This document shows positions 10,709 to 54,668 of a stretch of 64,000 nt of DNA, in pieces. The translations under genes were made by a program, and so were the position numbers. The stretch is from Clostridiales bacterium (GTDB lineage Bacteria > Bacillota > Clostridia > Christensenellales > UBA1242). Below the pieces are notes generated by a model that made no database searches, had not been told where the DNA came from, and was given only the letters and a program-made list of their open reading frames with translations. Location of the stretch: NCBI GenBank assembly GCA_015069325.1, contig SVIV01000002.1, positions 181,694-245,693 on the forward strand, written 5' to 3'. How positions within the stretch are numbered: the stretch's first letter is position 1; every line of letters begins with the position of its first letter.

Positions 10709-11905
10709 CTATTTTCTATTGTTTCTTAATTTTTCAATCCAAGGTGGAACTGCTGTATTTTTCACTTCCACACGAGATGAAAATTCATTTTTCTTTTCAA
10801 AAGAAACTTCTGGCTTCACAGATGCTTCTTCTTCAACCTTCTCTTCTGGTTTTACATAGTTTGAGAAAAGGCTTCTTGCAGAATATTCTGTCTTAGTCGC
10901 CATATTACCCATTGCTTTTGCTTGAGCAATTTCGTTTGCTTTTTCTTCCTTTCTTTTTTCTTCTTCAGGGTTTTTAAATCCTGTAGCGATAAGAGTAATT
11001 TCAACTTCATCATGCATATTTTCATCAATGCTTGTTCCGAGAATGATATTGCAGTTTTCGTCAACAACTTCCCTTACAAGAGAAGCCGCTTCGCTTACGT
11101 CATCTTGAGTAAGATCTGTGCCACCTTTAATGTTGATAAGAAGGCCTGTTGCACCTTCAATTGTAGTTTCAAGAAGTGGTGACGCAACAGCTTGTTTAAC
11201 AGCTTCAAGTGCTTTATTGTCACCAGCACCATAACCAATACCCATATGTGCAAGACCTTTGTCTTTCATAATTGTAGTAACGTCAGCAAAGTCAAGGTTG
11301 ATAAGACCTGGATAAACAATAAGGTCTGAAATTCCTTGCACGCCTTGACGAAGCACATCATCTGCAAATCTGAATGATTCAAGAAGTGGTGTCTTCTTAG
11401 GCACAATTTGAAGAAGTTTTTCATTTGGAATAACCACTAGGGCATCAACATATTTTCTTAACTTTTCAAGCCCTTCTTCTGCATTTTTCTTTCTTACTGG
11501 ACCTTCAAAAAGGAATGGTTTTGTGATAACCGCAATAGTAAGTATGCCAAGTTCTTTTGCAATTTGAGCAATAACAGGAGCCGCACCTGTGCCTGTTCCA
11601 CCACCCATACCAGCAGTAATAAACACAAGATTTGCATCTTTAAGCATTTCTGTAATCGATGTTTTGCTTTCTTCTGCGGCCTTTTGTCCTATCTCGGGCT
11701 TAGCGCCAGCGCCACCACCACCTGTAAGACGTTCGCCAATTTGAAGTCTAACAGGAGCTTTAGATAAAAGCAACGCTTGTTGGTCAGTATTAACAGAAAT
11801 AAACTCAGCTGAACTCACACCTGCTTCTATCATTCTGTTGACAGCATTTCCACCACCACCGCCAACGCCAATAACTTTGATTTTTGTTGCACAATTGTTT
11901 TCCAT
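10709..11905 (-). CDS. ftsZ: cell division protein FtsZ
   Basis: [17 protein letters not shown] and [15 protein letters not shown] tubulin signatures. RBS AAGGAGA before the ATG at 11905. The track start at 11968 is an extension. Confidence 0.97.
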
Positions 11906-12041
11906 AACATTCTCCTTAAAGTTTCTATTAATTGTATTGTAATATATTTGAGTTTTTTTTGCAAACATTTATATAAATTTTTTAAAAAAAGTGATTAAAT
12001 TAACAAAATATCTAATTATTTCATTAATTTTATTGTTTTTG

Positions 12042-13166
12042 TTATCTTCTTTCTAAAGAAGTTAATGCGTAATCAACAAGAGAATAAATTGATGCCATTG
12101 TAGGTTTTTCTTGTCCAGGAATTGGTGGAACACCTAATTTTATATTTCTTCCCAAGCATTTCGCAAGATAATCCTTCCCACCTTTCACTTTTGCAATTCC
12201 ACCACCTGTCAAATAAATAGGTAAGTGCGCAATATATTCTTTTGAATACTCTTGCAGGCAAGTGTTTACAACTTCCGCCAATTCTTCAATTCGATATGCA
12301 ACAACTTCATTTGCACTGTTAAGCACAACTTTTTCAATCTTTCCGTTTTCTAATACTACATCATAACAGTCATTTGGTTTTCCCTTAATTGAAAGCACAA
12401 CTTCGTTTTTAAGCCTTAGCGCATCTTTGATTGATAGTTCAAATGCTTCGGCAAGATCATTTGTAATAAATCCACCGCCACGAGAAAGAGAAGTAAGCAT
12501 TAACAACCCATTACCTTTTACAAGAGATATACTTGTTGAGATATCACCACTATCAAGCAAAAGAGATAGGTCTTCTTTTTTATCTTTAGGAAGAATAAAT
12601 TGTGATTGAGCAAGCACTTCGCTTATATATTCAACATATTGAAATCCTAAAGAAGATGCAATATCATTAAATAAGTCAATAAACATTTTATTTGCATAGA
12701 CAACTGAAAGCTTGCCTACCAGAGTGCTTCCTACATATCCCACTGGTTCAAGCATAGTTTTTCCATCAACGTCAAAAGAAATAGGACTTACTGAAACTAC
12801 TTCAACTTCAGTATTTTTACTTTTTTCGCTGGCCATATAAAAAAGTTCATCAATATCATCTTTTTTAATTTTTCTTCGTTCGGCAAAATTCAAACTGCAT
12901 TCCAATTGCATAACAGAAGAAAACTCTGCAGGCACTCCCACATAAATTTTTTTAATCTTGTTTAAATATGGCGCAAATTCTTGAACGATTTCCTTAAATA
13001 GTTTAGGTAATTCTTCTTTGTTTAAAAATTCGCCTTCATAAAAACCGTCATATTCAATTTCTTTAAATCCTTTAACCGCAAACGTCCTGTTTAATCCCCT
13101 TCCTGCAATCATAGCGCGAAGGCGAGAAGAACCAATGTCAAAAGCTAAAACAAATTTTTCTTTCAT
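12042..13166 (-). CDS. ftsA: cell division protein FtsA
   Basis: 374 aa. Actin-like ATPase with an AFDIGSS phosphate-1 motif. Directly upstream of ftsZ. Confidence 0.9.
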   Translation of the reverse strand: MKEKFVLAFDIGSSRLRAMIAGRGLNRTFAVKGFKEIEYDGFYEGEFLNKEELPKLFKEIVQEFAPYLNKIKKIYVGVPAEFSSVMQLECSLNFAERRKIKKDDIDELFYMASEKSKNTEVEVVSVSPISFDVDGKTMLEPVGYVGSTLVGKLSVVYANKMFIDLFNDIASSLGFQYVEYISEVLAQSQFILPKDKKEDLSLLLDSGDISTSISLVKGNGLLMLTSLSRGGGFITNDLAEAFELSIKDALRLKNEVVLSIKGKPNDCYDVVLENGKIEKVVLNSANEVVAYRIEELAEVVNTCLQEYSKEYIAHLPIYLTGGGIAKVKGGKDYLAKCLGRNIKLGVPPIPGQEKPTMASIYSLVDYALTSLERR

Positions 13167-13209
13167 AATCCACCCTTTAAAACAATTTTAATAAAAAAGC
13201 CCAAAAATG

Positions 13210-14079
13210 TCAAACACCTTGGGCAATAAAAATTTTAAAATAACATTTTTCATTTTCTAGATTAAGAATTCCATCTTCTGTGTAATAGTTATTAATATAA
13301 ATCTCGCAGTTTTTTAAGTTTTCAAGTGTCAATCTCTCATAAGTTCCATCTTTCTGCAAACTTTCCTTGCCTGCCATTTCAAATAAAGACGAATAAACTT
13401 GACTAAACAAATAAACCTTATATGGCAAATTAACTTGATAGTTTGCAATTGAAACGGTTTGTCCACTATAAAGATTTAATTTTAAAACCTTTCTTTCTTG
13501 TGCAATTGAATCATCAAACTCTTTTTCAACTTTAATTTCTTTAATCAAATCTTTACACATTCCTAAACGATAATTGTTTTGATAAAAAGCCTGATAAAGT
13601 TTGACATCAATATCAAGATAATCACCAACTTTTTCATTTTTAATTTGCAAGTCTCCACTTAAAAGAATTGCATTTTCCGTTGTCGATTCAAACGTTTCTT
13701 TTATTTTTAAAACTTTAAATTCTTCATCACAAATATAAAATCCATCTTGTCCTTCAACTGCATACACTTCCTGCCTATATGCAATATGAATTACCATTGT
13801 TGATGGAAATTCGGTTTCAATATTAATAACATTTAAATAAGGATATTCATATTCAATATTGTCAATATATTTTTGTTTATTTCTAAAAAAGACCGTCCCA
13901 CCAAGTTCAATACCACTAGCTTTTATAATATCTTCTTCTGTCGCATTTTCTTCAATAGTGGCACTCGTCCTAAAATCAATTTTGACTTCACCAAGCGAGA
14001 AAAAAGTATATGCTAATAAAACAATAATGCCTACTACAAAAAAAACACTACATACACTGATTATTAATTTCTTTTTCAA
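13210..14079 (-). CDS. cell division protein FtsQ/DivIB-like
   Basis: 289 aa. One N-terminal TM helix followed by an extracytoplasmic domain. Called by its position between murA and ftsA; sequence similarity was judged by eye only. Confidence 0.6.
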   Translation of the reverse strand: MKKKLIISVCSVFFVVGIIVLLAYTFFSLGEVKIDFRTSATIEENATEEDIIKASGIELGGTVFFRNKQKYIDNIEYEYPYLNVINIETEFPSTMVIHIAYRQEVYAVEGQDGFYICDEEFKVLKIKETFESTTENAILLSGDLQIKNEKVGDYLDIDVKLYQAFYQNNYRLGMCKDLIKEIKVEKEFDDSIAQERKVLKLNLYSGQTVSIANYQVNLPYKVYLFSQVYSSLFEMAGKESLQKDGTYERLTLENLKNCEIYINNYYTEDGILNLENEKCYFKIFIAQGV

Positions 14080-15331
14080 CTTTTACCCTCTTAATATCAC
14101 CGCCCAGTGCAGTGAATTTTTCTTCAATGTTTTTGTATCCCCTATCAATATAACAAATGTTATCAATAGTCGTATAGCCTTGAGCAACAAGCCCTGCCAA
14201 AACAAGCGATGCCCCGCCACGCAAATCCCCCGCACTTACATCGGCACCAAAAAGATGTTTTTGTCCCTTTGCAATCACTATCCCATTTCTAGAAATTAGG
14301 TCAGCACCCATTTTTTTTAATTGTCCTATGTGCTTGTTTCTACTTTCAAAAATATTTTCAATAATTAAACTATACCCATCGCTTATGCTTGAAAGCGCTG
14401 TCATCTGAGATTGCAAATCGGTGGGGAATGCAGGATATACACCCGTTTCTATTTCCCCAAAAGATTTCAGTTTTCCATTTCTAGTCAAAATTATTGTATC
14501 ATTTTCACATTTGATTTTGCAAGCAGATTTTATAAGTTTTGACAAAAGTTCTTGATTTTGCTGTGGATTTGCACCTTTAACCACAATTTCGCCCCCTGTC
14601 ATAGCACCTGCAATTAAAAATGTCCCCGCTTCAATCCTATCTGTGATAGGCCTAAATGAAAGAGAATGCAATTTTTTCCCGCCTTGAATCGAAACGACAT
14701 CTGTTCCTGCTCCACAGACTCTTCCGCCTGCTTTATTTATAAAGTTTGCAAGGTCCACTATTTCAGGTTCCTTCGCGCAGTTGATTATCCTAGTTTCTCC
14801 TTCAATGCAAGTTGCAAGCATCATAAGATTTTCAGTAGCCCCTACACTTGCAAAAGAAAGTGCAATATCTTTTGCCTGCATCTTTTCTTTGCGGGCATAA
14901 ATATATCCATTTTTTTCAACAACCTTTGCCCCTAGATTTCTTGCACCCGACAAATGCAGGTCAATTGGGCGAAGACCTATATCGCAACCACCAGGATATG
15001 CAATTTTCACACTTCCCAGCCTTGCAAGAATTGGTCCTAAACAAAAAATAGAAGACCTTAACGGGCTTGCCAGCTCATTTGGGACTTCATTTGAAGAAAG
15101 TGAAGAGTTGTCAATTATTAAATCGTCTTTTTCCCAATAGACTTTACTTCCCAAATTCTCTAAAATGTCTATCATTGCAAACACATCACTATACCCCACC
15201 ACCCTTTCAATTCTCACCTGGCCTTCAATCAAAATACTGCACGCCATTATAGGTAATAATGAGTTTTTTGCACTATCAATTTGAACTTCTCCGTTAAGTT
15301 TATTTCCACCAACAATAAAAAACTGTTCCAT
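14048..15331 (-). CDS. murA: UDP-N-acetylglucosamine 1-carboxyvinyltransferase
   Basis: 427 aa with GNKLNGEVQIDSAKNSLLPIMA and GGCDIGLRPIDLH (catalytic Cys loop), typical of MurA. Confidence 0.95.
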   Translation of the reverse strand: MEQFFIVGGNKLNGEVQIDSAKNSLLPIMACSILIEGQVRIERVVGYSDVFAMIDILENLGSKVYWEKDDLIIDNSSLSSNEVPNELASPLRSSIFCLGPILARLGSVKIAYPGGCDIGLRPIDLHLSGARNLGAKVVEKNGYIYARKEKMQAKDIALSFASVGATENLMMLATCIEGETRIINCAKEPEIVDLANFINKAGGRVCGAGTDVVSIQGGKKLHSLSFRPITDRIEAGTFLIAGAMTGGEIVVKGANPQQNQELLSKLIKSACKIKCENDTIILTRNGKLKSFGEIETGVYPAFPTDLQSQMTALSSISDGYSLIIENIFESRNKHIGQLKKMGADLISRNGIVIAKGQKHLFGADVSAGDLRGGASLVLAGLVAQGYTTIDNICYIDRGYKNIEEKFTALGGDIKRVKVEKEINNQCM

Positions 15332-23149: not shown

Positions 23150-24145
23150 CTATAACAACTCTATCTGTAATTCTTCACACTGTTTGAGTGTGTCTTTATC
23201 CCAATAACTTGCTTGAACTTCTCCAATATGTGCACGACCAAGAAGCAACATACATAATCTGCTTTGACCTATTCCACCACCAATTGTAAGCGGCAACTCT
23301 TCTTTGACAATTGATTGATGATAAGCATATTCTAATCGTTCTTGCTTACCTGATTTTTCAAGTTGCTTAATTAAAGTATCTTTATCAACCCTAATTCCCA
23401 TACTTGAAATTTCAATAGCCATATCCAACACTTCGTGATAGAAAAGTAAATCTCCGTCTAAACTCCAATCATCATAGTCTGGCGCTCTCGTATCGTGCGG
23501 TTTGCCATCGCTTAAATCATCACCAATGCCAATAATAAATACAGTTTTATATTGTTTTGTAATCAAATATTCTCTTTCTTTATCTGTTTTATCTGGATAC
23601 AAATCCAAAAGTTCTTGACTTGTTATAAAGAAAACATCTTTGCATATTTCCACACCATCAAACCCTTTTGTCTTTAAAAATTCACTAGTGTCCGCAATTG
23701 CTTTAACAATCTTTTTGACAGTTTTCTTTAAAAAATCTACAGTTCTATCTTTTCTAACTATAACTTTTTCCCAATCCCATTGATCAACATAAATTGAATG
23801 AGTTTCATCCATTTTATCATCTCTTCGAATTGCAGTCATATCAGTGTATAAACCCTTATGAATAGGAAAATCATATTTTTTTAGTGCCATACGCTTCCAT
23901 TTAGCAAGAGATTGAACTATTTCGAGCTGTTTACCATCTTTCAAAATATCAAACGATACTTTACGCTCAACTCCACTTAAATCATCTTGCAAACCACTTT
24001 CTTTCGTTACAAGTAATGGTGCTGAAACTCTTGTTAAATCTAATGCTCCAGCCAATTTTCTTTCAAACTTATCTTTGATAAATTTTATATATTTTTGTTT
24101 ATCTAATATTCTTAAATGTGTATATTTTTCTTTAATAAATTTCAT
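23150..24145 (-). CDS. asnA: aspartate--ammonia ligase (asparagine synthetase A)
   Basis: 331 aa with LDLTRVSAPLLV..SGLQDDLSG.ERKVSF and a class-II aaRS-like core ending GGGIGQSRLCMLLL. Confidence 0.9.
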   Translation of the reverse strand: MKFIKEKYTHLRILDKQKYIKFIKDKFERKLAGALDLTRVSAPLLVTKESGLQDDLSGVERKVSFDILKDGKQLEIVQSLAKWKRMALKKYDFPIHKGLYTDMTAIRRDDKMDETHSIYVDQWDWEKVIVRKDRTVDFLKKTVKKIVKAIADTSEFLKTKGFDGVEICKDVFFITSQELLDLYPDKTDKEREYLITKQYKTVFIIGIGDDLSDGKPHDTRAPDYDDWSLDGDLLFYHEVLDMAIEISSMGIRVDKDTLIKQLEKSGKQERLEYAYHQSIVKEELPLTIGGGIGQSRLCMLLLGRAHIGEVQASYWDKDTLKQCEELQIELL

Positions 24146-24213
24146 AATTTTTCTCCTTCAACTTAATATTTTGGCAAATTTTGAAATTACAATATATTTA
24201 AGGAACATCAAAT

Positions 24214-24288
24214 TCACCTAAAAACTCTCCTTAAATATTTATTATTGTTATTATCATCTTCGCCCGCTACGGCGTTTGTCTTTTTCAT
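24214..24288 (-). promoter_or_regulatory. second Asn-rich mini-ORF in the asnA leader (MKKTNAVAGEDDNNNNKYLRRVFR)
   Basis: RBS AAAGGAG 5 nt before the ATG at 24288. Four consecutive Asn codons. Stop at 24216-24214. Confidence 0.4.
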
Positions 24289-24330
24289 AACATCTCCTTT
24301 TTTCAATTTTTTTTATAGTTAACAACACTA

Positions 24331-24429
24331 AGTAAAAATAGCACACCCTTTAGAGAGTGTGCTGTGATATGTGTTATTTTAATAACATCAATATAAACAA
24401 AACACTCTCTTGGATTTCAAGAGAGTGTT
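24331..24429 (-). promoter_or_regulatory. asnA leader attenuator: hairpin 24401-24429, terminator 24331-24362, alternative pairing between them
   Basis: Minus-sense AACACTCTCTTG-aaatc-CAAGAGAGTGTT followed by UUUUGUUUAU, then GCACAC-ucucuaaag-GGUGUGC followed by UAUUUUU. AGAGAGUGU of the first hairpin can instead pair with ACACUCUCU, which overlaps the terminator 5' arm. Confidence 0.55.
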
Positions 24430-24450
24430 GATTATCTATTTTAAATATGC

Positions 24451-24534
24451 TTAGATTTTTTCAACAACAAAAATGAAACCCATATTAAATGCGTTTAAAT
24501 TATTATTGTTGTTATTATTTATAACTCTAAACAT
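24451..24534 (-). promoter_or_regulatory. Asn-run leader peptide (MFRVINNNNNNNLNAFNMGFIFVVEKI) upstream of asnA
   Basis: Promoter TTGACA-N17-TGtgaTAAAAT at about 24565-24590. RBS AAAGGAGAAGG. Seven consecutive AAT/AAC codons plus two more Asn. Confidence 0.55.
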
Positions 24535-24666
24535 ACCTTCTCCTTTCATTTAGATGTCTCTATTTTATCACATAATTCACCATATGTCAATACATTTTGA
24601 AAAATTTTTAAATTCATAACAACCCAGTCAATCAATTACACATTTTAGAGGAGTTATAGTATCTTA

Positions 24667-25095
24667 TTATGGTTTATATTTTAAAATAAAGTGTGAATGA
24701 TTTTCTCCATCAACAATAAAACCATGCCTTTCGTAAAATCTTTTAGCTGGATTTGTTTTAAATGTGTCTAAATAAATTGGTTTATTAAGTTGATTTGCTT
24801 GTTTTATAAAATGTTGCATTATCTCAGAACCCAAACCATTGTTTCTAAAGTTTGGAAATAAACACAAAACATCAACAGTAATTTTTGTCTCTTCTTCTTT
24901 AAAATAAACAAACCCCGCGATCTCGTTTCCCACCATTATTTTAAACAAACTTGATTTTAATCTCTCCAAATGTTGTTCCATTATACTTTGATCAAACTGT
25001 CCAAAAAATTCTATAACATATTTTTCAAAAGCATCTTTTTGCATTTTTAAATATAAATCTCGATCTTTTTGTTCATATAATTTCAATTCAAACAT
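24667..25095 (-). CDS. GNAT N-acetyltransferase (array unit 6)
   Basis: 142 aa from the ATG at 25095 (MFELKLYEQ...). RNNGLGSEIM acetyl-CoA loop. The track start at 25179 translates the promoter region. Confidence 0.8.
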   Translation of the reverse strand: MFELKLYEQKDRDLYLKMQKDAFEKYVIEFFGQFDQSIMEQHLERLKSSLFKIMVGNEIAGFVYFKEEETKITVDVLCLFPNFRNNGLGSEIMQHFIKQANQLNKPIYLDTFKTNPAKRFYERHGFIVDGENHSHFILKYKP

Positions 25096-25117
25096 ATTTT
25101 TATCCCTTAATAATTTC

Positions 25118-25170
25118 ATTATACCACACAAATAAAAAAATGTATACACTTTGAATGCAAAATGTATACA
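25118..25170 (-). promoter_or_regulatory. unit-6 promoter with twin TGTATACA palindromes
   Basis: TGTATACA at 25141-48 and 25163-70, 22 bp apart. Extended -10 TGtGgTATAAT with TATAAT at 25118-23. Confidence 0.65.
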
Positions 25171-25184
25171 TTTTATCAAAAAAA

Positions 25185-25435
25185 TTAAATTTTACTTTTC
25201 CTACTCTGTCTATCCACATTCAAAACCACCCCTATTGCACTCATAAAAACAAGGAGCGCAGTTGAACCTGCAGAGTTTTGGGGCCCCCGCAAATCGTGAG
25301 AATTGCGGGGAAAAGGAAAAACGGAGCGTCAAATTTTGTGCAAGCAAAGCGAGCACAACTCACAAAGCGAGTGTTTTGACGCAGGTAGTGGCAAACCCGT
25401 TGGTGGTATGCTACCTGTTACCACGAGTTATTGCA
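25185..25435 (-). repeat. decoy copy A of the ftsW 3' tail (with structured insert)
   Basis: Encodes ..PPTGLPLP | insert | AGSTALLVFMSAIGVVLNVDRQSRKSKI* and aligns to ftsW 29534-29680. An in-frame TGA lies inside the insert. Confidence 0.85.
25272..25382 (+). ncRNA. structured insert, copy A (111 nt)
   Basis: Hairpin CCCCGCAA/TTGCGGGG, outer stem GCGTCAAA/TTTGACGC, inner hairpin TTGTGC/GCACAA, purine linker GGGGAAAAGGAAAAAC. The strand call is tentative and rests on G-T pairs. Confidence 0.45.
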
Positions 25436-25446
25436 CTATGGATTTC

Positions 25447-25965
25447 TTATTTAATTTTTTCATCTTCAAGTGGTTCACATTCAATTAATTTACTTTCATA
25501 AGCCAAATAATTAAACAATTGCATAAAAACCTGTTCAACCTTAGGCACCCTGCTACCACTGTTGCAAAAACAAATTGCGCAACCCATATGTGGATAACTC
25601 CAACTTTCTTTATCTTCATTTTTTATGAATTTTATTGTAAAAGCATCTTCAGTTTTTATAATATTTAAAACATTCGCTTCATCTTCTGGCCAATCTTCAC
25701 TAATATAAGATATTATGTTCCCTTGTAATACTGGACGATATTTGTCATCATTCTTCCCTACAGCATTAAATAATTGATTAAAAACACCATACGTTATTTT
25801 ATCGCTTTTATCTATTTCAAAAATTTTATTTTCTTTATGATTCTCTGGCAACCAATATAAATCCAAATTGCCACCAACTGTCATTACAAATGACTTACCA
25901 TTTTTATCGGTAATTTTTACATCATAATATCCTTCTTTATTGTTTCTTAGTTGTTTTGTAATCAC
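25447..25965 (-). CDS. hypothetical protein (array unit 5)
   Basis: 172-aa ORF with a GTG start after RBS AGGAGAA. Own promoter TTTACA-N17-TGgTAATAT. The stop abuts decoy tail A. Confidence 0.55.
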   Translation of the reverse strand: MITKQLRNNKEGYYDVKITDKNGKSFVMTVGGNLDLYWLPENHKENKIFEIDKSDKITYGVFNQLFNAVGKNDDKYRPVLQGNIISYISEDWPEDEANVLNIIKTEDAFTIKFIKNEDKESWSYPHMGCAICFCNSGSRVPKVEQVFMQLFNYLAYESKLIECEPLEDEKIK

Positions 25966-25981
25966 TATTTTCTCCTAAAAA

Positions 25982-26057
25982 ATATTACCACATTTTCAAA
26001 CAATTGTAAATAGAATGAAATAAAAAATGTATACACTTTGATTACAATATGTATACA
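25982..26057 (-). promoter_or_regulatory. unit-5 promoter region with twin TGTATACA palindromes
   Basis: TGTATACA at 26028-35 and 26050-57, 22 bp apart. Divergent -10 TAATAT at 25982-87. Confidence 0.6.
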
Positions 26058-26070
26058 TTTCATTAAAAAA

Positions 26071-26327
26071 TTAAATTTTACTCTCTCTACTCTGTCTATC
26101 CACATTCAGCACCACCCCTATCGCACTCATAAAAACAAGGAGCGCAGTTGAACCTGCAGAGTTTTGGGGCCCACGCAAATCGTGAGATTTGTGGGGAAAA
26201 GGAAAAACAGAGCGTCAAATTTTGTGCAAGCAGAGCGAGCACAAATCACAAAGCGAGTGTTTTGACGCAGGTAGTTGCAAACCTGTTGGTGGGATTGAGC
26301 CTCTTAACATCAGTTATTGTATTATAA
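26071..26327 (-). repeat. decoy copy B of the ftsW 3' tail (with structured insert)
   Basis: Same architecture as copy A. Insert at 26158-26268. Confidence 0.85.
26158..26268 (+). ncRNA. structured insert, copy B (111 nt)
   Basis: Same helices as copy A. The P1 3' arm reads ATTTGTGGGG, which makes a G-T pair on the plus strand. Confidence 0.45.
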
Positions 26328-26846
26328 AGTTACCCAATACCTTTCTAAATTTATTCCCTCTCTTTCAAGTGTTCTAGTATCCTCATATTGTCCACCATTT
26401 GCTAAAATACATTTTCTTGATGCAATGTTGGTGTCTTTACAAGACAATAGCACTTTATCAATTCCCAACTCTTTGCATTTCTTTAACCCAAGAGCAAGTA
26501 ATTTTTTACCATAACCTTTCCTTCTTTCATCAACAGCAACACTATCTCCACAATGCCCGCCATAATTCAATAAGAAATCACTTAATTTATGTCTAATTTG
26601 AAACATTCCTATTAACTTGTTATCAGACTTCCTTATACAAATGTATTGCGTTGAAGGAACATATCCTGCAGGTAAATTTTTTCCCTCTCTCCAATCATTA
26701 TTTTTTTGTAGCCATGTTTCAAAATCATCTTTTCTTAAATCTCCACAGCCATCCATACTAGAACCCGATTCAATCATATCTTTTTTATATCTTTCTACTT
26801 GCTCTTTATATTCAGCTGTTGGTATTATTAACTCTAATTCATCCAT
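26322..26846 (-). CDS. GNAT acetyltransferase (COG3981-like; array unit 4)
   Basis: 174 aa with VAVDERRKGYGKKLLALGLKKCKELG, the acetyl-CoA binding motif. The stop codon lies inside the conserved repeat boundary ttattgtattataa. Confidence 0.8.
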   Translation of the reverse strand: MDELELIIPTAEYKEQVERYKKDMIESGSSMDGCGDLRKDDFETWLQKNNDWREGKNLPAGYVPSTQYICIRKSDNKLIGMFQIRHKLSDFLLNYGGHCGDSVAVDERRKGYGKKLLALGLKKCKELGIDKVLLSCKDTNIASRKCILANGGQYEDTRTLEREGINLERYWVTL

Positions 26847-26875
26847 AAATTACACCCCACGCTATCACTATATCA

Positions 26876-26928
26876 ATTATACCACACAAATAAAAAAATG
26901 TATACACTTTTCTTACAATTTGTATACA
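26876..26928 (-). promoter_or_regulatory. unit-4 promoter with twin TGTATACA palindromes
   Basis: TGTATACA at 26899-906 and 26921-28, 22 bp apart. TGtGgTATAAT with TATAAT at 26876-81. Confidence 0.65.
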
Positions 26929-26942
26929 TTTCTATAAAAATT

Positions 26943-27130
26943 TTATTTGAGATTCACTCCACTCATTTCTCTCGGTCGGAATGACAGTGTTTTACTTTGT
27001 TTATCTACGTTGAGAACAACTCCGATGGCAGACATAAAGACAAGCAAACTTGTTGACCCTGCAGAGATGAACAGAAGTAGTAATCCTGTTGGTGGGATTG
27101 AGCCCCTTAACATCAGTTATTGTATTATAA
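26943..27130 (-). repeat. decoy copy C of the ftsW 3' tail (no insert; intact alternative C-terminus)
   Basis: Reads in frame as IPPTGLLLLFISAGSTSLLVFMSAIGVVLNVDKQSKTLSFRPREMSGVNLK*. It lacks the ~110-nt insert. Confidence 0.85.
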
Positions 27131-27140
27131 AATTTCACAC

Positions 27141-27170
27141 AAAAAAAGAGCAAAATTTATTGCTCTTTTT
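27141..27170 (-). terminator. terminator of the PnuC unit
   Basis: Stem agagcaa/ttgctct with A and T runs. Nearly identical to the hairpin at 29064-29091. Overlaps the pnuC stop. Confidence 0.7.
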
Positions 27171-27864
27171 GCTTATATTGTTTTTTCTCTTCTAACTTCC
27201 AATGAATCAGACCATAGGTATCATTGGTTAAAAAAACAAAAAACGTAACAACGGTTGGCAAATAACCAATTCCGCTATTCACAACAACAATCGACCATAA
27301 AACGATTAAAATAATATCATTAAGAATAAAAGCTAAAGCATAATAGCTACATCTTCTAAGCATTAAATATGAAGCAACTAAAGATGTAATTAAAGACAAT
27401 GTGCTTATAATCAACTCACTAGTGTTTAATGCTTTTAATAAAAAATAAAATCCAATTGTTGCAAAAACTGTTGCAACAGACAAATATGCATATTCCTTTC
27501 CTTTTATCTTATTAACTTCAACAACTTGTGTATTTTCCTTATTTTTATTTCTCAACCAAGTAATTATTGAAAAGAAATAAATAGGAATCATTAATACAAT
27601 ATAAATTATTGCTTCACCATAATAACGTTGAACTATTGATATAATGGCATATAAAACACAATATATAATATTAAGAAATGGCGAAACAATTAAACCCTTA
27701 GCCAAAGTAAAAACAGCAATAATGCCAACTAATGAAGTAATTAACGAAAAAGCATTTTTATCTAAACTAAAAACAAAACACAAAACAATTGCCAACAAAC
27801 TAACAAATAAAAATAAAATTTCAAACAAATTCCAATTCTTAAAAAATTTTTTAAGCATAAGCAT
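27157..27864 (-). CDS. pnuC: nicotinamide riboside transporter PnuC family (array unit 3)
   Basis: 235 aa, 7-8 TM helices. N-terminal WNLFEILFL...LAKG...YGEAI..., a PnuC-like pattern. Confidence 0.75.
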   Translation of the reverse strand: MLMLKKFFKNWNLFEILFLFVSLLAIVLCFVFSLDKNAFSLITSLVGIIAVFTLAKGLIVSPFLNIIYCVLYAIISIVQRYYGEAIIYIVLMIPIYFFSIITWLRNKNKENTQVVEVNKIKGKEYAYLSVATVFATIGFYFLLKALNTSELIISTLSLITSLVASYLMLRRCSYYALAFILNDIILIVLWSIVVVNSGIGYLPTVVTFFVFLTNDTYGLIHWKLEEKKQYKQKEQ

Positions 27865-27878
27865 TCTCCAATGAGTTA

Positions 27879-27931
27879 ATTATACAATAAAAATAACAAA
27901 ATGTATACAAATTGCATGCAAAATGTATACA
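27879..27931 (-). promoter_or_regulatory. unit-3 promoter with twin TGTATACA palindromes
   Basis: TGTATACA at 27902-09 and 27924-31, 22 bp apart, flanking a TTGCATGCAA centre. TATAAT at 27879-84. Confidence 0.65.
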
Positions 27932-27947
27932 CTTTAACAAAAAAAAT

Positions 27948-28198
27948 TTAAATACTACTTTTTCTACTCTGCCTATCTACATTAAGCACAACCCCTATTG
28001 CACTCATGAATACTAGCAAACTTGTTGAGCCTGCATTTTGGCCCCCGCAAATCGTGAGATTTGTGGGGAAAAGGAAAAACAGAGCGTCAAATTTTGTGCA
28101 AGCAGAGCGAGCACAAATCACAAAGCGAGAGTTTTGACGCAGGTAGTGGCAATCCTGTTGGTGGGATTGACCCATTAACATCAGTTATTGTATTATAA
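27948..28198 (-). repeat. decoy copy D of the ftsW 3' tail (with structured insert)
   Basis: GSIPPTGLPLP and AGSTSLLVFMSAIGVVLNVDRQSRKSSI* are separated by the insert at 28035-28140. The upstream part is in a different frame. Confidence 0.85.
28035..28140 (+). ncRNA. structured insert, copy D (106 nt)
   Basis: P1 CCCCGCAAAT/ATTTGTGGGG (one G-T pair), P2 GCGTCAAA/TTTGACGC, P3 TTGTGC/GCACAA. Confidence 0.45.
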
Positions 28199-28219
28199 AA
28201 AAGCACAAAAAAAGAGTCT

Positions 28220-28699
28220 TTACAACTCTTTTTCCTCACTTTCTTGAATAACGTCTTGCTTGTGCAAGACCTCCAAACATTCTTGTTTAAACTTAGCAAT
28301 TTCCTCTTTATCTTCACCAAAATAAAGTTCACCTGCTATATCTAATAATTCATCTATAGTCATTAAATTATCATCATCTTTATAATAATTTATACCACTT
28401 CGTCTATTGGTATAATCTTGAGCAAGCAAACATGCCTCATCATATCTTGTCACACCATGATTTTTGCTTAAATCAGTATTCCTCAATGCCTTAATAAAAT
28501 ATTTTGGTTCTTTATATGGATCAAAAACATATTCACCAGTTTTACTTCTAGATAAATGTATTCGTGCACTCTCACTCAATCTTGTCATAAAAGTTTGAAA
28601 TGCATTTTTATTGTCGATAACAAATTCAATATGATAAAAATGATGACCTACACACTCATTACCACAAAAAACTCTAATTTCCTTAAATCGTTTTTTCAT
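28220..28699 (-). CDS. hypothetical protein (array unit 2)
   Basis: 159 aa from the ATG at 28699 (MKKRFKEIRVF...), preceded by RBS TAGGAGAAAG. The track start at 28780 translates the promoter. No motif recognised. Confidence 0.55.
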   Translation of the reverse strand: MKKRFKEIRVFCGNECVGHHFYHIEFVIDNKNAFQTFMTRLSESARIHLSRSKTGEYVFDPYKEPKYFIKALRNTDLSKNHGVTRYDEACLLAQDYTNRRSGINYYKDDDNLMTIDELLDIAGELYFGEDKEEIAKFKQECLEVLHKQDVIQESEEKEL

Positions 28700-28720
28700 A
28701 CATCTTTCTCCTATGCTTGC

Positions 28721-28773
28721 ATTATACCACACAAACAAAAAAATGTATACACATTGATTATAATTTGTATACA
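28721..28773 (-). promoter_or_regulatory. unit-2 promoter with twin TGTATACA palindromes
   Basis: TGTATACA at 28744-51 and 28766-73, 22 bp apart. TGtGgTATAAT with TATAAT at 28721-26. Confidence 0.65.
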
Positions 28774-28791
28774 TTTGCATTAAAATTTTTT

Positions 28792-29050
28792 TTAGATTTT
28801 ACTCTTCCTACTCTGTCTATCTATATTTAGAACAATCCCTATCGCACTCATAAAAACTAGCAAAGAAGTTGAGCCGGCATTCTGGGGCACCCCGCAAGTT
28901 GCAGGAGCGAAACTTGTGGGGATAAGGAAAAACCAAGCGTCAATTTTTGTGCGACCAACAGCGAGCACAAACTTAAAAGCGAGTGTTTTGACGCAGGTAG
29001 TGGCAAGCATGTTGGTGGAATTGAACCTCTTAACATCAGTTATTGTATTA
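28792..29050 (-). repeat. decoy copy E of the ftsW 3' tail (with structured insert)
   Basis: Tail AGSTSLLVFMSAIGIVLNIDRQSRKSKI*. Insert at 28879-28994. This is the most diverged copy. Confidence 0.85.
28879..28994 (+). ncRNA. structured insert, copy E (116 nt)
   Basis: P1 CCCCGCAAGTT/AACTTGTGGGG carries a compensatory A-T to G-C change relative to copies B and D. The loops differ but the stems are kept. Confidence 0.45.
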
Positions 29051-29063
29051 CAAATTTTTGCAT

Positions 29064-29091
29064 TAAAAAAAGAGCAAATTTATTGCTCTTT
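29064..29091 (-). terminator. terminator of the LytTR unit
   Basis: Stem agagcaa/ttgctct with A and T runs. Confidence 0.7.
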
Positions 29092-29093
29092 AC

Positions 29094-29444
29094 CTAAAAT
29101 TCTCTTTCATGTTCTCGATTTAATTTGGGGATGACATTTCTTTCAAAATCCACCACAGATAATTTTTTTAGTTGCATACCATTTCTAAATTTAACAGTAA
29201 CAAAAGACCCATTACTTAAATATGAATTCATTTCATTTGGATTTATATAAACAACGCAATTGTGTTTATAGCAAAATACTTTAGGCAACTTGTTTAATAA
29301 GTTTTCCATATCGCCCCATTGCAATGTAACGGTTTCTCCATCGATAAAATGTGTATCACATTTAAAACCATCTTCAACTATATACAAAATATCTCTTGAA
29401 TTAAATTCAATTCTTTTCCATGATCCAAATGGCGTAGCTTGCAT
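29094..29444 (-). CDS. stand-alone LytTR-type DNA-binding domain protein (array unit 1)
   Basis: 116 aa. RIEFNSRDILYIVEDGFKCDTHFIDGETVTLQWGDMENLLNKLPKVFCYKHNCVVYINPNEM fits the LytTR pattern (..I.yie......i.t.......sl..le..Lp..F.r.hrs.iVN...i). No receiver domain. Confidence 0.65.
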   Translation of the reverse strand: MQATPFGSWKRIEFNSRDILYIVEDGFKCDTHFIDGETVTLQWGDMENLLNKLPKVFCYKHNCVVYINPNEMNSYLSNGSFVTVKFRNGMQLKKLSVVDFERNVIPKLNREHEREF

Positions 29445-29464
29445 ATTGTTTCTCCTACTTTTTC

Positions 29465-29518
29465 ATTATACCACAAAAATAAAAAAAATGTATACACTTT
29501 GATTACGATTTGTATACA
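29465..29518 (-). promoter_or_regulatory. unit-1 promoter with twin TGTATACA palindromes, directly after the ftsW stop
   Basis: TGTATACA at 29489-96 and 29511-18, 22 bp apart. TGtGgTATAAT with TATAAT at 29465-70. Confidence 0.65.
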
Positions 29519-29533
29519 TTTATATTGAAAATA

Positions 29534-30649
29534 TTAAATTCTACCTTTTCGAGATTGTCTATCAACATTCAACACCACCCCTATCGCCGACATAAAAACA
29601 AGCAAACTTGTACTGCCGGCACTTATGAAAGGCAACGGCAGTCCTGTTGGTGGGATCGAACCTGTTACAACAGCGACATTAAGAAGGGTTTGCACTGCAA
29701 TAACAAATGCGACTCCGCAAGAAAGCATACTGCCAAAGCGGTCTTTTGCATTAAGACCTATTTTTATAATTTGCAAACATAAAAATAAGACAAACGAAAG
29801 ATATAAAACCACTCCCACAAATCCTATTTCTTCTCCCATAATTGAAAGAATAAAATCTGATTCAGCAAATGGAAGAAATAAATATTTTTGACGAGAGTTG
29901 AAAAGCCCAACACCAAACCATCCACCATCACCAAGAGAATAAAGCGATTGAATAAGCTGAAAACCTTCACCCTGCGGAGACGCCCAAGGATCAATAAACG
30001 CTAACAATCTTTTCATTCGATATGGCTCTGCAATAATTAGTAGTGGCACTGCAAGACCTGCAGGAATTGAAAACATAAGCGTATGCTTTTTGCTCATTCC
30101 ACCTATAATAAGCATACACAGCAAAACAAAACATATGCACATAGTTACACTCATACTAGGCTCCAACATAATCAGCAAAGCCATAACACCGCCTACCACA
30201 AGCACAGGAAATAACCCTTTTAAAGTTTTTACCTTATGATTATTATCTGCCAAATATGATGCTGTAAAAATCACCAATGCAAATTTTGCCACTTCTGATG
30301 GTTGAATTGAAAAGCCTAAAAGAGAAATCCATCTTTTTGCACCATATATTTCAACGCCCAAACCTGGAATAAAAACAAGGGATAAAAGCACACACGTTCC
30401 AACTACAATCCACCACTTAAGCTTTGCTAAGATATGATAATCCACCATTGAAAAGAAAATTAATCCACATATGCCCAAAATAAAACCAAAAAGTTGTTTA
30501 AAAAGAAAAAATTCGCTATTTCCATAATGATGCTGAGCAGAATAAAAACTTGCACTGTAAACCATAACACAGCCAAACAGTGCTAAGATTGCCACTATTG
30601 AAAAAATTAAAAGATATTCACCCTTGAAATTCAATTTTTTCAGTTTCAC
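29534..30649 (-). CDS. ftsW: SEDS-family peptidoglycan polymerase FtsW/SpoVE
   Basis: 371 aa, about 10 TM helices. C-terminal GSIPPTGLPLPFISAGSTSLLVFMSAIGVVLNVDRQ matches the SEDS signature. Located after murD in the dcw cluster. Confidence 0.9.
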   Translation of the reverse strand: MKLKKLNFKGEYLLIFSIVAILALFGCVMVYSASFYSAQHHYGNSEFFLFKQLFGFILGICGLIFFSMVDYHILAKLKWWIVVGTCVLLSLVFIPGLGVEIYGAKRWISLLGFSIQPSEVAKFALVIFTASYLADNNHKVKTLKGLFPVLVVGGVMALLIMLEPSMSVTMCICFVLLCMLIIGGMSKKHTLMFSIPAGLAVPLLIIAEPYRMKRLLAFIDPWASPQGEGFQLIQSLYSLGDGGWFGVGLFNSRQKYLFLPFAESDFILSIMGEEIGFVGVVLYLSFVLFLCLQIIKIGLNAKDRFGSMLSCGVAFVIAVQTLLNVAVVTGSIPPTGLPLPFISAGSTSLLVFMSAIGVVLNVDRQSRKGRI

Positions 30650-52640: not shown

Positions 52641-54668
52641 TTAAAATCCAAAATCGTCGTCTGGTTTATTTCCAAAAACAATATTATTTCTCTTATCAAT
52701 GTCATAGAAAATTCTGCTTACATCTAATGGCTTTGACGTTCTTGCCGGCATTTTTGCCGAACTCTTTTCCATAAATTCACATTCAAAGAATGGAGTCATA
52801 ATATCTTTCATAATGCTCTTTCTGAAAATTTTTGCAATAACAGTCCAACGTGGAAGCTGACGAAGTTCTTGCTTATCGATAAGCGGTTTTCTTGTGCGTT
52901 GAGTTGAAGTCGAAATGTTTTCTCCTTGATTTGTATCTTTTGTATTTCTTGATCTATTTTCTTCTTCGTGGAAGACTGTAGTTTCACCGCAGGCTTCAGA
53001 GAAGGCTTGAATTGTTGAAGGATCTTCCGAACCTAAGAACACTTCCATTTGGAAGTTTCCGCGAATATTCTTCGCTTCTTCTGAACCATATTTAATATCA
53101 AGCTGAGTATAAGATTGTAAGATAATTTCAAAGAAAACATTTCTCGAACGAGCAACAGTAACCATAGTCCCAAATCCAGGAATTGCAGGCATATTACCAA
53201 ATTCATCAAGGATAAAGTAAACAGGACGTTTAAGTTTTCCTTTCTTGCCATTTTTAGGATTAACTGTTTTATTTGCCACATCTACAAGCACTTTATATAG
53301 TTGGCTTATGCAAAGGACACCAATTGGGTGTCTTTCTGTTTTATGGTCAGGAATTCTAATAAAGAATGCTGTTGGTTGATCTGCAAATTTAGTAAAGTCA
53401 ATTTCCGTTCCGCTTGTAACATACAAAATACCGTCATCACCAAGAGTTTTACCTACTGATGAACCAAGAGTTGAAAGGAATGATCTTTGTGTAACTGATG
53501 CCGCACCGCAAACAGTTGACATGAGTTGTTGAACATTTCCGTTGATTGTATCTCTGCCTTCCGCGTATTTTGCAAGAGTTTTCAGTTGACTTTCTCTTTC
53601 CCCTGCAGGATCTCTTTTCATAGCCATTTTGTAAAGGTTGAAGAAGTTGAATTTTTCTTTTGTCATACCAAGTCTTGGATCGCGAGTATCTTCAAGCATC
53701 GCATACATAAGACCTGTAATAAAGTCTCTACAACCATTTGGCCAAGTTGGATCTTTGCATTGTGGATCATCTGGAATAAGAGAAAGCGCAATATTTCTTA
53801 AGTCGCTTTTTGCTTCATCTTCAAGTTTGATTTTTGTCGCAAGAAGTTCTCGCTTAATCATATCGTGAGTTGGGAATGCCTTTCCTTCGAAACCATACCA
53901 AGTATTGCCATAAGTAGCACCATTAAGGTCTGCTTCTGAAATTCGAGTAAATCCCATATCTTCAGGAGTGCAATCAATATACTTTTTCACTTCTTTCGCA
54001 AGATTGCCTGCTCTTTGATAAGTATTGTAAGCAATTTCCATTGGGTTCCACATAGAAGACTCGTAAGGATCGTTAAGGTTTAAAACAATTACGTTATACC
54101 CTTCCTTTCTAAGCACATCTGCGTTGTCTTCATAAAGTTCTCCCTTAGGGTCAGTCATAACAATACTTGGTTTCTCTGCCGAGTGAGATAAAATTCTGAT
54201 TGTTGGGTTTGCGAGAAGTTGTGTTTTACCAGTTCCTGTAGTTCCCAAAACGAGAGCGTGAGTTTCTGGTTTCATATTAACTTCAAACTTACTGCCTACT
54301 CTTTTATTTCTAAAAATGAAACCTGTTTTATTGCACATTGGAAGATCTTTCCAAGTAGAATAAATAAGTTCTTTATCAGTCCTTAAAGTTTCAGCCGAAA
54401 TGAATTTAGAGTCAAATGCAATATCAGTCTCTTCCCCTTCGGTAGTAACACCTTTATTTTTGTGTTTTTCTTCCTTTTTGCCTTTTGTGCATAATCCCAA
54501 AATAAATCCGCCCCCAGCAGCGCACCCCATTATCATAAGTGCAAGATCTGACGTGAGTGAAGCTTGAATATCTTGAGCATTCATATAATTAAGCCCGAAA
54601 CCCGCAGCATAGCCTAGGATTCCAAAAAGTATCATGAATACTATAGCCATTTTGAATTTTCTTCCCAT
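52641..54668 (-). CDS. type IV secretion coupling protein (TraG/VirD4 family)
   Basis: 675 aa. Two N-terminal TM helices. Walker A LGTTGTGKTQ and Walker B-like YFILDEFGN. Confidence 0.8.
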   Translation of the reverse strand: MGRKFKMAIVFMILFGILGYAAGFGLNYMNAQDIQASLTSDLALMIMGCAAGGGFILGLCTKGKKEEKHKNKGVTTEGEETDIAFDSKFISAETLRTDKELIYSTWKDLPMCNKTGFIFRNKRVGSKFEVNMKPETHALVLGTTGTGKTQLLANPTIRILSHSAEKPSIVMTDPKGELYEDNADVLRKEGYNVIVLNLNDPYESSMWNPMEIAYNTYQRAGNLAKEVKKYIDCTPEDMGFTRISEADLNGATYGNTWYGFEGKAFPTHDMIKRELLATKIKLEDEAKSDLRNIALSLIPDDPQCKDPTWPNGCRDFITGLMYAMLEDTRDPRLGMTKEKFNFFNLYKMAMKRDPAGERESQLKTLAKYAEGRDTINGNVQQLMSTVCGAASVTQRSFLSTLGSSVGKTLGDDGILYVTSGTEIDFTKFADQPTAFFIRIPDHKTERHPIGVLCISQLYKVLVDVANKTVNPKNGKKGKLKRPVYFILDEFGNMPAIPGFGTMVTVARSRNVFFEIILQSYTQLDIKYGSEEAKNIRGNFQMEVFLGSEDPSTIQAFSEACGETTVFHEEENRSRNTKDTNQGENISTSTQRTRKPLIDKQELRQLPRWTVIAKIFRKSIMKDIMTPFFECEFMEKSSAKMPARTSKPLDVSRIFYDIDKRNNIVFGNKPDDDFGF

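Follow-up and report, generated by a model that had tools for sequence, protein, structure and literature searches.

How small accessory genes are assembled into expressed arrays in Gram-positive bacteria is poorly understood. In the accretion of cis-mobilizable elements (CIMEs) and integrative and conjugative elements of the ICESt group, and in staphylococcal cassette chromosome (SCC) arrays at rlmH, a dedicated integrase acts at a short fixed crossover core, and the rAID-1 arrays of Bacteroidales adjoin a tyrosine recombinase gene. Tycheposon islands lie at tRNA genes (bioRxiv 10.1101/2020.12.28.424599), complete integrons have not been found in Firmicutes genomes (PMC4889954), and the minimal mobile elements of Neisseria (Saunders and Snyder 2002, as cited in PMC3787668) are, as that later source summarizes them, exchanged by homologous recombination between conserved flanks. 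Here we describe what may be a different solution: six single-gene units stacked on the 3′ end of ftsW, on the minus strand within the essential division and cell wall (dcw) cluster of a Clostridiales bacterium, in a 64,000-nt stretch of contig SVIV01000002.1 that we refer to as the window. We propose, with moderate confidence, that homologous recombination has made the ftsW-murA junction in this clade of uncultured gut Clostridia into a site of gene accretion, with a pseudo-copy of the ftsW tail acting as a portable homology arm.

The array appears to work most like a minimal mobile element as outlined in that source, in that relatives differ in the whole genes that lie between constant, conserved flanking genes, the island contains no genes for its own mobility and the flank bears signs of recombination. 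Unlike those elements, it has its right-hand homology within the island itself, where the 3′ end of the left flank is present as a pseudo-copy; insertions therefore pile up as an array, with one displaced tail left behind by each event, and every unit has in addition a copy of one promoter. With CIMEs, SCC arrays and tycheposons it shares a gene 3′ end as the site of successive insertions, restoration of that gene and partial end copies that stand as direct repeats, but it differs from them in lacking any integrase that we could find, in repeats of 140-450 nt, in variable crossovers and in units of a single open reading frame (ORF). Its ORF-sized cassettes of unrelated function, with GNAT acetyltransferases frequent among them, its repeated structured separator and its variable content recall integrons, including sedentary chromosomal ones, yet it has no intI, attI or attC signature, each cassette has its own regulated promoter and the repeats come from the tail of a host gene; it shows no defining integron feature except cassette variability. 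Like rAID-1 arrays, it joins small orphan genes to repeated intergenic sequences in gut bacteria, with a few SUKH/SMI1 immunity-like cargo genes (in L100, one of the related arrays below), whereas its place is inside the dcw cluster and it has no recombinase. Literature searches for ftsW-tail arrays returned nothing, and we regard the locus as a recombination-built islet at a gene 3′ end whose architecture is apparently undescribed.

A Pfam scan and repeat alignment of the window resolved six single-gene units of unrelated accessory function downstream of ftsW, with five degenerate extra copies of the ftsW 3′ end (hereafter decoys) between them (Table 1). The repeat template is the terminal ~165 nt of ftsW (29534-29700, ~55 codons), and the tail copies in the window are 60-93% identical in pairwise comparison, with decoys A and B 90-93% identical from the PPT codons to the first TGTATACA and different in their leaders. 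An initial annotation, made from the sequence alone, had described this layout as an integron-like stack; repeat finding, alignment and tblastn with the FtsW tail placed all five copies within a few bases of its positions, and alignment and junction scans bore out unrelated single-gene units split by the repeats, each with its own promoter. It was also right that no complete copy follows the last unit, where a leader stub of ~20 nt is fused to the asnA leader region and the remainder of the decoy is deleted. Its cargo calls held for PnuC and the two GNATs, which Pfam recovers, and failed for a LytTR protein in unit 1 (see below); units 1, 2 and 5 have no Pfam match. Of the terminators that it gave to three units, those after units 1 and 3 are terminator-like hairpins and that after unit 2 is a degenerate version only, while the two-hairpin insert in decoys A, B, D and E and the shared terminator hairpin upstream of the leader had been underplayed.

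The same six-gene array, in identical order, is also present on an independently assembled ENA contig, and JGI contigs carry units 3-6 and asnA in the same order, with unit 6 on 23 contigs in all. Because independently assembled contigs carry it, and because the copies differ as much as they do, the array is not an assembly artefact, which the annotation had named as a way in which it could be wrong. Separately, the ftsW-tail repeats break short-read assemblies at this locus, which is relevant to the quality of metagenome-assembled genomes.

FtsW homologues end in one of two tail types, T1 (AGSTSLLVFMSAIGVVLNVDRQSRKSKI) and T2 (SGGTSVMVFMAGIGICLNVLRQSK). Alignment of all junctions shows a module made up of an optional terminator hairpin, a leader, the ftsW pseudo-tail with its stop codon, a twin TGTATACA element, an extended −10 promoter and a short 5′ untranslated region (UTR). 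The shared hairpin (AAAGAGCAATAAATTTGCTCTTTTTT), which marks the left end of the module, stands upstream of decoy leaders in about half of the units and in several species. The leader consensus, (T/C)ATA(A/G)T(A/G)CAATAACT(G/C)(A/G)TG followed by the GSIPPTGLPLPFISAGSTS...RKSKI tail and a stop, corresponds to the ftsW codons AVQTLLNVAVVTG with a net loss of 12 nt, which introduces an in-frame TAA. This one leader, with the same indel pattern relative to ftsW, is common to 24 of 24 type-1 decoys from 11 species, which indicates a single decoy lineage. In L093, the twin element lies directly upstream of murA, and the module is therefore the native ftsW end together with the native downstream promoter rather than a foreign att region. 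Just past the leader TAA, nearly every decoy has an ATG, GTG or TTG at the same position, and intact decoys (for example 26943-27113) hold a potential ORF of 45-56 codons (MLRGSIPPTGLPLPFISAGSTS...) that would encode the final transmembrane helix of FtsW; the start codon of these potential ORFs is not preceded by a recognizable ribosome-binding site.

The arrangement TGTATACA-N14-TGTATACA has six exact matches in the window, all of them at junctions, against 0.02 expected by chance. It can be read equally as two perfect 8-bp palindromes 22 bp apart or as three direct hexamers with an 11-bp period (TGTATA-N5-TGYAAT-N5-TGTATA) that overlap the −35. TATACA-17/18-TATAAT is found at five junctions, four of which have the TG extension, and the promoter of junction B is shifted. 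The WalR operator consensus consists of direct hexamers, TGTWAH-N5-TGTWAH, adjoining the −35 (PMC9210968); of the three junction hexamers, the middle one agrees with it and the two outer ones deviate at position 5. The junction promoters probably share one putative regulator, which would be a response regulator of the WalR/OmpR type or a dimer that binds palindromes.

To place the array among relatives, we took one genome per species in an FtsW search, which gave 66 loci, and added arrays from contigs encoding FtsW homologues and from metagenome contigs. The scaffold occurs with other cargo in at least ten species (L006, L007, L100, L102/103, L105, L109, L111, L113, L114/115 and L095), with one to five or more decoys per array, and in the two closest species (L006, FtsW 85% identical; L007, 81%) it carries other genes. 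Thus, as the annotation had anticipated, the junction module is found elsewhere, and it persists while the number, order and identity of units vary between related species. A scan of JGI metagenomes for the twin element gave 27 matches, of which only L093 and L095 are real relatives and the others chance. Cargo is wholly different across 11 species, the window included, and comprises GNATs, methyltransferases, NUDIX, Ham1, cytidine-deaminase-like, 2-hydroxyacid dehydrogenase, hexapeptide acyltransferase, SUKH/SMI1 and Pol-beta nucleotidyltransferase proteins and many without a match; the GNATs, methyltransferases, hexapeptide acyltransferase, deaminase, NUDIX and SUKH immunity-like proteins suggest functions in small-molecule modification and defence. 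Few cargo proteins are common to different arrays, the best matches having 42-75% amino-acid identity, and the shared cassettes (unit 3 of L111 and unit 3 of L113 at 75%; unit 2 of L007 and unit 1 of L040 at 68%) are about as diverged as core genes.

The interval from ftsW to murA (or asnA) ranges from 37 nt to 14 kb across relatives, with unrelated content. In outgroups the ftsW-murA gap is 37-230 nt, as it is in 14 of the ~40 close species with the other tail type that have both genes on the locus, and we take ftsW adjoining murA to be the ancestral state. In about a dozen type-2 species (within L008-L056), ftsW and murA are separated by 1-8.5 kb of unrelated genes with no repeat scaffold, so the junction is a general insertion hotspot. 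No scaffold was found in the type-2-tail species with insertions L011, L022, L032, L036 and L049, and among these and L040 only L040 has tail copies; they form a second, independent decoy lineage with a different boundary, 92% identical to the species' own tail, which means that decoys can originate more than once.

Recombination between ftsW ends of different lineages has left several kinds of trace. A neighbour-joining tree built from the FtsW body intermingles the two tail types and implies at least five switches between them. In L114/L115 the working tail is T1 and is accompanied by one T1 decoy and by a distal decoy composed of the decoy leader and a T2 3′ half; this distal decoy is the fossil of a displaced resident tail, and it lends support to the annotation's proposal that older tails are displaced outward. 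The same annotation had placed the crossover at a fixed point downstream of the PFIS codons, which does not hold, as hybrid tails switch at no fewer than four different positions over ~150 nt: the switch lies between VFM and SAIG in the working tail of L109, which goes from T2 to T1, at FMA|AIG in L060, at LRQS|RKNKI in P0071 and within PTGLPLPF in L114_2. The break in L106, where a T1 remnant follows a T2 tail, is at about −140. L006 and L113 are 92-98% identical solely across −161 to −71 of ftsW and ~70% identical elsewhere, a patch that coincides exactly with the decoy-homologous stretch and that we read as a conversion tract. Between decoy and host tail, the proportion of synonymous differences (pS) is 0.60 and the peptide is almost unchanged, Ser codon-family switches included; saturated synonymous change with a kept peptide implies that decoys evolved mostly as working tails in other lineages and not as local pseudogenes. 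When nearest neighbours are determined segment by segment, they differ along the modules, as would be expected of mosaics. Recent tail transfer as a general pattern was rejected, since mean nucleotide identity is 76% for tails and 73% for the gene body and only the L006/L113 pair stands out. We likewise rejected strict growth at the ftsW-proximal end, because a cassette that recurs in another species is flanked on either side by units that do not, and internal insertion or loss must therefore also occur.

No integrase, transposase or resolvase was detected by Pfam among the scanned window ORFs of at least 100 aa, in agreement with the annotation, and no recombinase in ~13 related arrays scanned together with up to 10 kb of flanking sequence. 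These scans thus showed neither an IntI-type tyrosine recombinase gene adjacent to an array nor a cognate integrase, and the crossovers of the hybrid tails are not confined to one short core. The module is absent from IMG/VR (four scans), INPHARED phages and PLSDB plasmids (BLAST), and no circular or phage-borne copy was found in these viral, phage and plasmid collections. The cassettes are not promoterless; each unit has its own promoter copy, unlike expression from a common Pc. Together, the variable crossovers, the 140-450-nt repeats, the native module and the absence of a detected recombinase point away from a fixed-core recombinase.

We therefore favour homologous recombination, with the following steps. 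DNA would come in from a relative that already carries an array; its left side would pair with the recipient ftsW, and on the right side a donor decoy tail would pair with the recipient's working ftsW tail. A double crossover would then put the donor tail and its cassette or cassettes behind ftsW, and the recipient's old tail would become the next decoy, composed of the donor leader and the resident 3′ half. Through the same homology, internal parts of the array could be replaced, the working tail could undergo gene conversion and the DNA between modules could be deleted. Accretion of this kind would depend on RecA, and each cargo ORF would be transcribed from its own copy of the native promoter.

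Several points weigh against this proposal. It moves and reshuffles cassettes and leaves unexplained how ~40 unrelated ORFs came to lie between the same promoter and 5′ UTR and, in about half of cases, the same terminator; new ORFs would first have to enter there by some other step, and the fairly clean cargo boundaries hint at a more specific capture. It also presumes natural competence or another DNA entry route, gives no role to the conserved 105-115-nt hairpin insert and leaves the origin of the first decoy unexplained. Within the species, no gain or loss of a unit was seen among the 23 contigs with unit 6, so turnover must be slow rather than an integron-like shuffling; between species, no near-identical cassette is shared (42-75% at best), and with these two results active transfer would be a conjecture. 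A recombinase encoded elsewhere in the genome would be compatible with our searches of the window and the ~13 arrays.

Table 1. Features of the ftsW array and of neighbouring loci discussed in the text, with positions in the window
Feature	Position	Strand	Description
ftsW	29534-30649	-	371 aa, intact; Pfam PF01098 (FTSW_RODA_SPOVE), E 3e-94
Junction 0	29465-29518	-	twin TGTATACA element (29489-29518) overlapping the −35 of an extended −10 promoter, TATACA-18-TGnTATAAT
Unit 1 gene	29094-29444	-	116 aa, orphan family, without Pfam match
Terminator after unit 1	29069-29091	-	hairpin AAAGAGCAATAAATTTGCTCTTT, then T-run
Decoy tail E	28792-29051	-	leader 29034-29051, GSIPPT..LPLP, 115-nt two-hairpin insert 28880-28994, AGSTS...RKSKI, stop
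Junction E	28721-28773	-	twin TGTATACA element and extended −10 promoter
Unit 2 gene	28220-28699	-	159 aa, without family match
Decoy tail D	27948-28196	-	105-nt insert 28036-28140; 1-nt deletion in 5′ part
Junction D	27879-27931	-	twin TGTATACA element and promoter
Unit 3 gene	27157-27864	-	PnuC-type nicotinamide riboside/NMN transporter; Pfam PF04973, E 1.5e-28
Terminator after unit 3	27143-27170	-	shared terminator hairpin
Decoy tail C	26943-27128	-	without insert; uninterrupted 56-codon ORF MLRGSIPPTGLLLLFISAGSTS...
Junction C	26876-26928	-	twin TGTATACA element and extended −10 promoter
Unit 4 gene	26322-26846	-	GNAT acetyltransferase (Pfam), 174 aa; stop codon within leader of decoy B
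Decoy tail B	26071-26325	-	110-nt insert 26159-26268
Junction B	25982-26057	-	twin TGTATACA element 26028-26057; promoter shifted by ~25 extra nt, TTTACA-17-TAATAT
Unit 5 gene	25447-25965	-	172 aa, without family match
Decoy tail A	25185-25439	-	110-nt insert 25273-25382; other leader variant ATAGTGCAATAACTCGTG
Junction A	25118-25170	-	twin TGTATACA element and extended −10 promoter
Unit 6 gene	24667-25095	-	GNAT acetyltransferase (Pfam), 142 aa (150 aa from upstream ATG)
Truncated decoy leader	24647-24666	-	taagatactataactcctc, ~20 nt, distal array end; recognized by comparison with other leaders
asnA leader ORF	24454-24534		MFRVINNNNNNNLNAFNMGFIFVVEKI, Asn-codon-rich
Hairpin	24401-24429		terminator-like
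Hairpin	24340-24363		terminator-like
asnA leader ORF	24214-24288		MKKTNAVAGEDDNNNNKYLRRVFR, Asn-codon-rich
asnA	23150-24145	-	
Type IV secretion coupling protein gene	52641-54668	-	T4SS-DNA_transf, TraG-D_C, TrwB_AAD_bind
glmS	54852-56690		

Homology-driven exchange was one of three mechanisms offered by the initial annotation, and it fits the data best. The annotation had also considered site-specific integration of circles with an attP-like ftsW tail and att-site accretion that has lost its integrase. In such a scheme, non-autonomous cassettes or element remnants with an attP-like ftsW tail would have been serially integrated by a tyrosine or serine recombinase encoded elsewhere, as in CIME or SCC accretion or an integron with a detached integrase, and later homologous recombination would have blurred the junctions. 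That the direct repeats come from the 3′ end of the target gene, which is restored after each event, and that all decoys have one defined left boundary would follow naturally, the more so as the independent decoy lineage of L040 starts no more than ~30 nt from the same place in ftsW; the cargo is ORF-sized with fairly clean boundaries, and the hairpin insert, present in about a third of type-1 decoys, could be a putative protein-binding site. However, neither the window nor the ~13 arrays yielded a recombinase, the crossover points vary, the left cargo boundary varies with the shared terminator in some units only, the insert is absent from most decoys outside one subclade, no viral, phage or plasmid record holds a copy, and the module is a native tail with a native promoter and not a foreign att. 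The data thus give no support to the integron-like, attP-type or integrase-lost versions, and we consider site-specific accretion unlikely.

Purely local evolution seems to us more doubtful still. By this account, an ancestral tandem duplication of ftsW tail, promoter, gene and terminator was followed by gene replacement or loss through illegitimate recombination and deletion, with gene conversion homogenizing the modules. The terminator-leader join that modules have in common is consistent with the join point of one ancestral duplication, some adjacent modules are the most similar pairs (window A/B, 93%; L006 decoys 1/2, 93%), arrays are stable within species and the shared cassettes (75% and 68%) are about as diverged as core genes. 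Yet the decoys are as far from the host tail as the tails of other species are (pS 0.6) with the protein kept, which is unexpected of local pseudogenes; tail type conflicts with the FtsW body tree; DNA from a foreign lineage is needed to account for the type-2 fossil in L114 and for L106, where a type-2 tail precedes a type-1 remnant; and ~40 unrelated cargo genes cannot be derived by duplication. We give very little credence to the idea that the decoys are themselves functional and the array serves ftsW, either as silent cassettes for switching the FtsW C-terminus or as 45-56-aa membrane peptides. Peptide-level conservation, the constant position of the start codon in nearly all decoys and the conversion-like patch in a working tail speak for it, whereas type-1 tails encode practically one peptide, so that switching changes nothing, about a third of type-1 decoys are broken by the insert or by frameshifts, and the start codons lack an upstream ribosome-binding site.

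Should homologous recombination be enough by itself, a single duplication could give rise to a cassette platform, and no mobile-element enzyme would be needed for its spread between species; a hidden recombinase, were there one, would represent a new site-specific system targeting ftsW. Tentatively, and with less confidence than we place in homologous recombination as the builder of the junction, we suggest that the clade has an integron-like gene-capture platform, without a dedicated recombinase or with a novel one, in which the module would combine a recombination arm, an expression signal and an insulator. The pseudo-tail of an essential gene, a regulated promoter and a terminator would then serve ORF-sized cargo, and each capture would rewrite the end of ftsW, making loss of the platform lethal to the cell. 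Such a use of an essential gene's end copy as recombination handle, with a native promoter copy driving each captured gene, would be at work in abundant uncultured gut Clostridia.

The insert within the decoys is 105-115 nt long, forms two hairpins and replaces codons F-I-S in decoys A, B, D and E, and is lacking in decoy C. It recurs in decoys of L006, L007 and L111, is restricted to decoys of one subclade and is absent from about two-thirds of type-1 decoys. Its hairpin structure is mostly invariant with only two covarying pairs, and the plus-strand fold is slightly favoured by G-U pairs. Hairpin 1 is followed in the sense direction by TTTTTCCTTTT, and decoy 5 of L111 has an extra 40-nt stem in the loop of hairpin 2. 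We rejected a dispersed miniature inverted-repeat transposable element, as the insert occurs solely inside decoys across 1.43 Mb of fetched sequence, and attC and Xer/dif readings of the insert and the twin element, for which there are no matching boxes or spacing; by inspection, attC boxes (RYYYAAC...GTTRRRY) are absent from the insert. Across 23500-30500, Rfam at E up to 10 gave only chance-level matches, with none for the insert, and no tRNA was found. A tRNA T-arm reading of GGTTCGATCCC in ftsW was set aside as mere resemblance, since GGTTCGATCCC encodes GSIP.

The LytTR identity that the annotation had given to the unit 1 protein finds no support in Pfam, where nothing matched even at E 10 and PF04397 was not matched, or among PDB sequences, where there was no match. 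Comparison with the C-domain of AgrA, using an approximate AgrA sequence, gave a BLASTP E of 0.65, and AlphaFold2 models had a predicted local distance difference test score (pLDDT) of 35-45 and were unusable. The orphan family of this protein is tiny, with five clusters in all, and the four homologue clusters (P0121-P0124) all lie on short contigs of 653-2708 nt, as would be expected if these loci sit between assembly-breaking repeats.

Among the type-2 species, many FtsW proteins (L008-L056) have variable lysine-rich C-terminal extensions of 15-30 residues after LRQSK. In L022, the gene or genes inserted between ftsW and murA (11870-14140) contain at least 18 tandem repeats of 78-84 nt, which encode repetitive proteins. 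The FtsW homologue P0002 (550 aa) has an internal duplication of ~180 residues, which may be a misassembly or a real tandem duplication in ftsW.

Beyond the distal end of the array, two small Asn-codon-rich leader ORFs lie upstream of asnA on the minus strand, within 24214-24534, and each is followed by a terminator-like hairpin. This arrangement, which is kept in L006 (13160-13470), looks like ribosome-mediated attenuation of asparagine synthetase by asparagine supply. Elsewhere in the window, a stand-alone gene for a type IV secretion system (T4SS) coupling protein adjoins glmS; no further conjugation or integrase genes were detected near it, and it may be a remnant of an integrative element at glmS.

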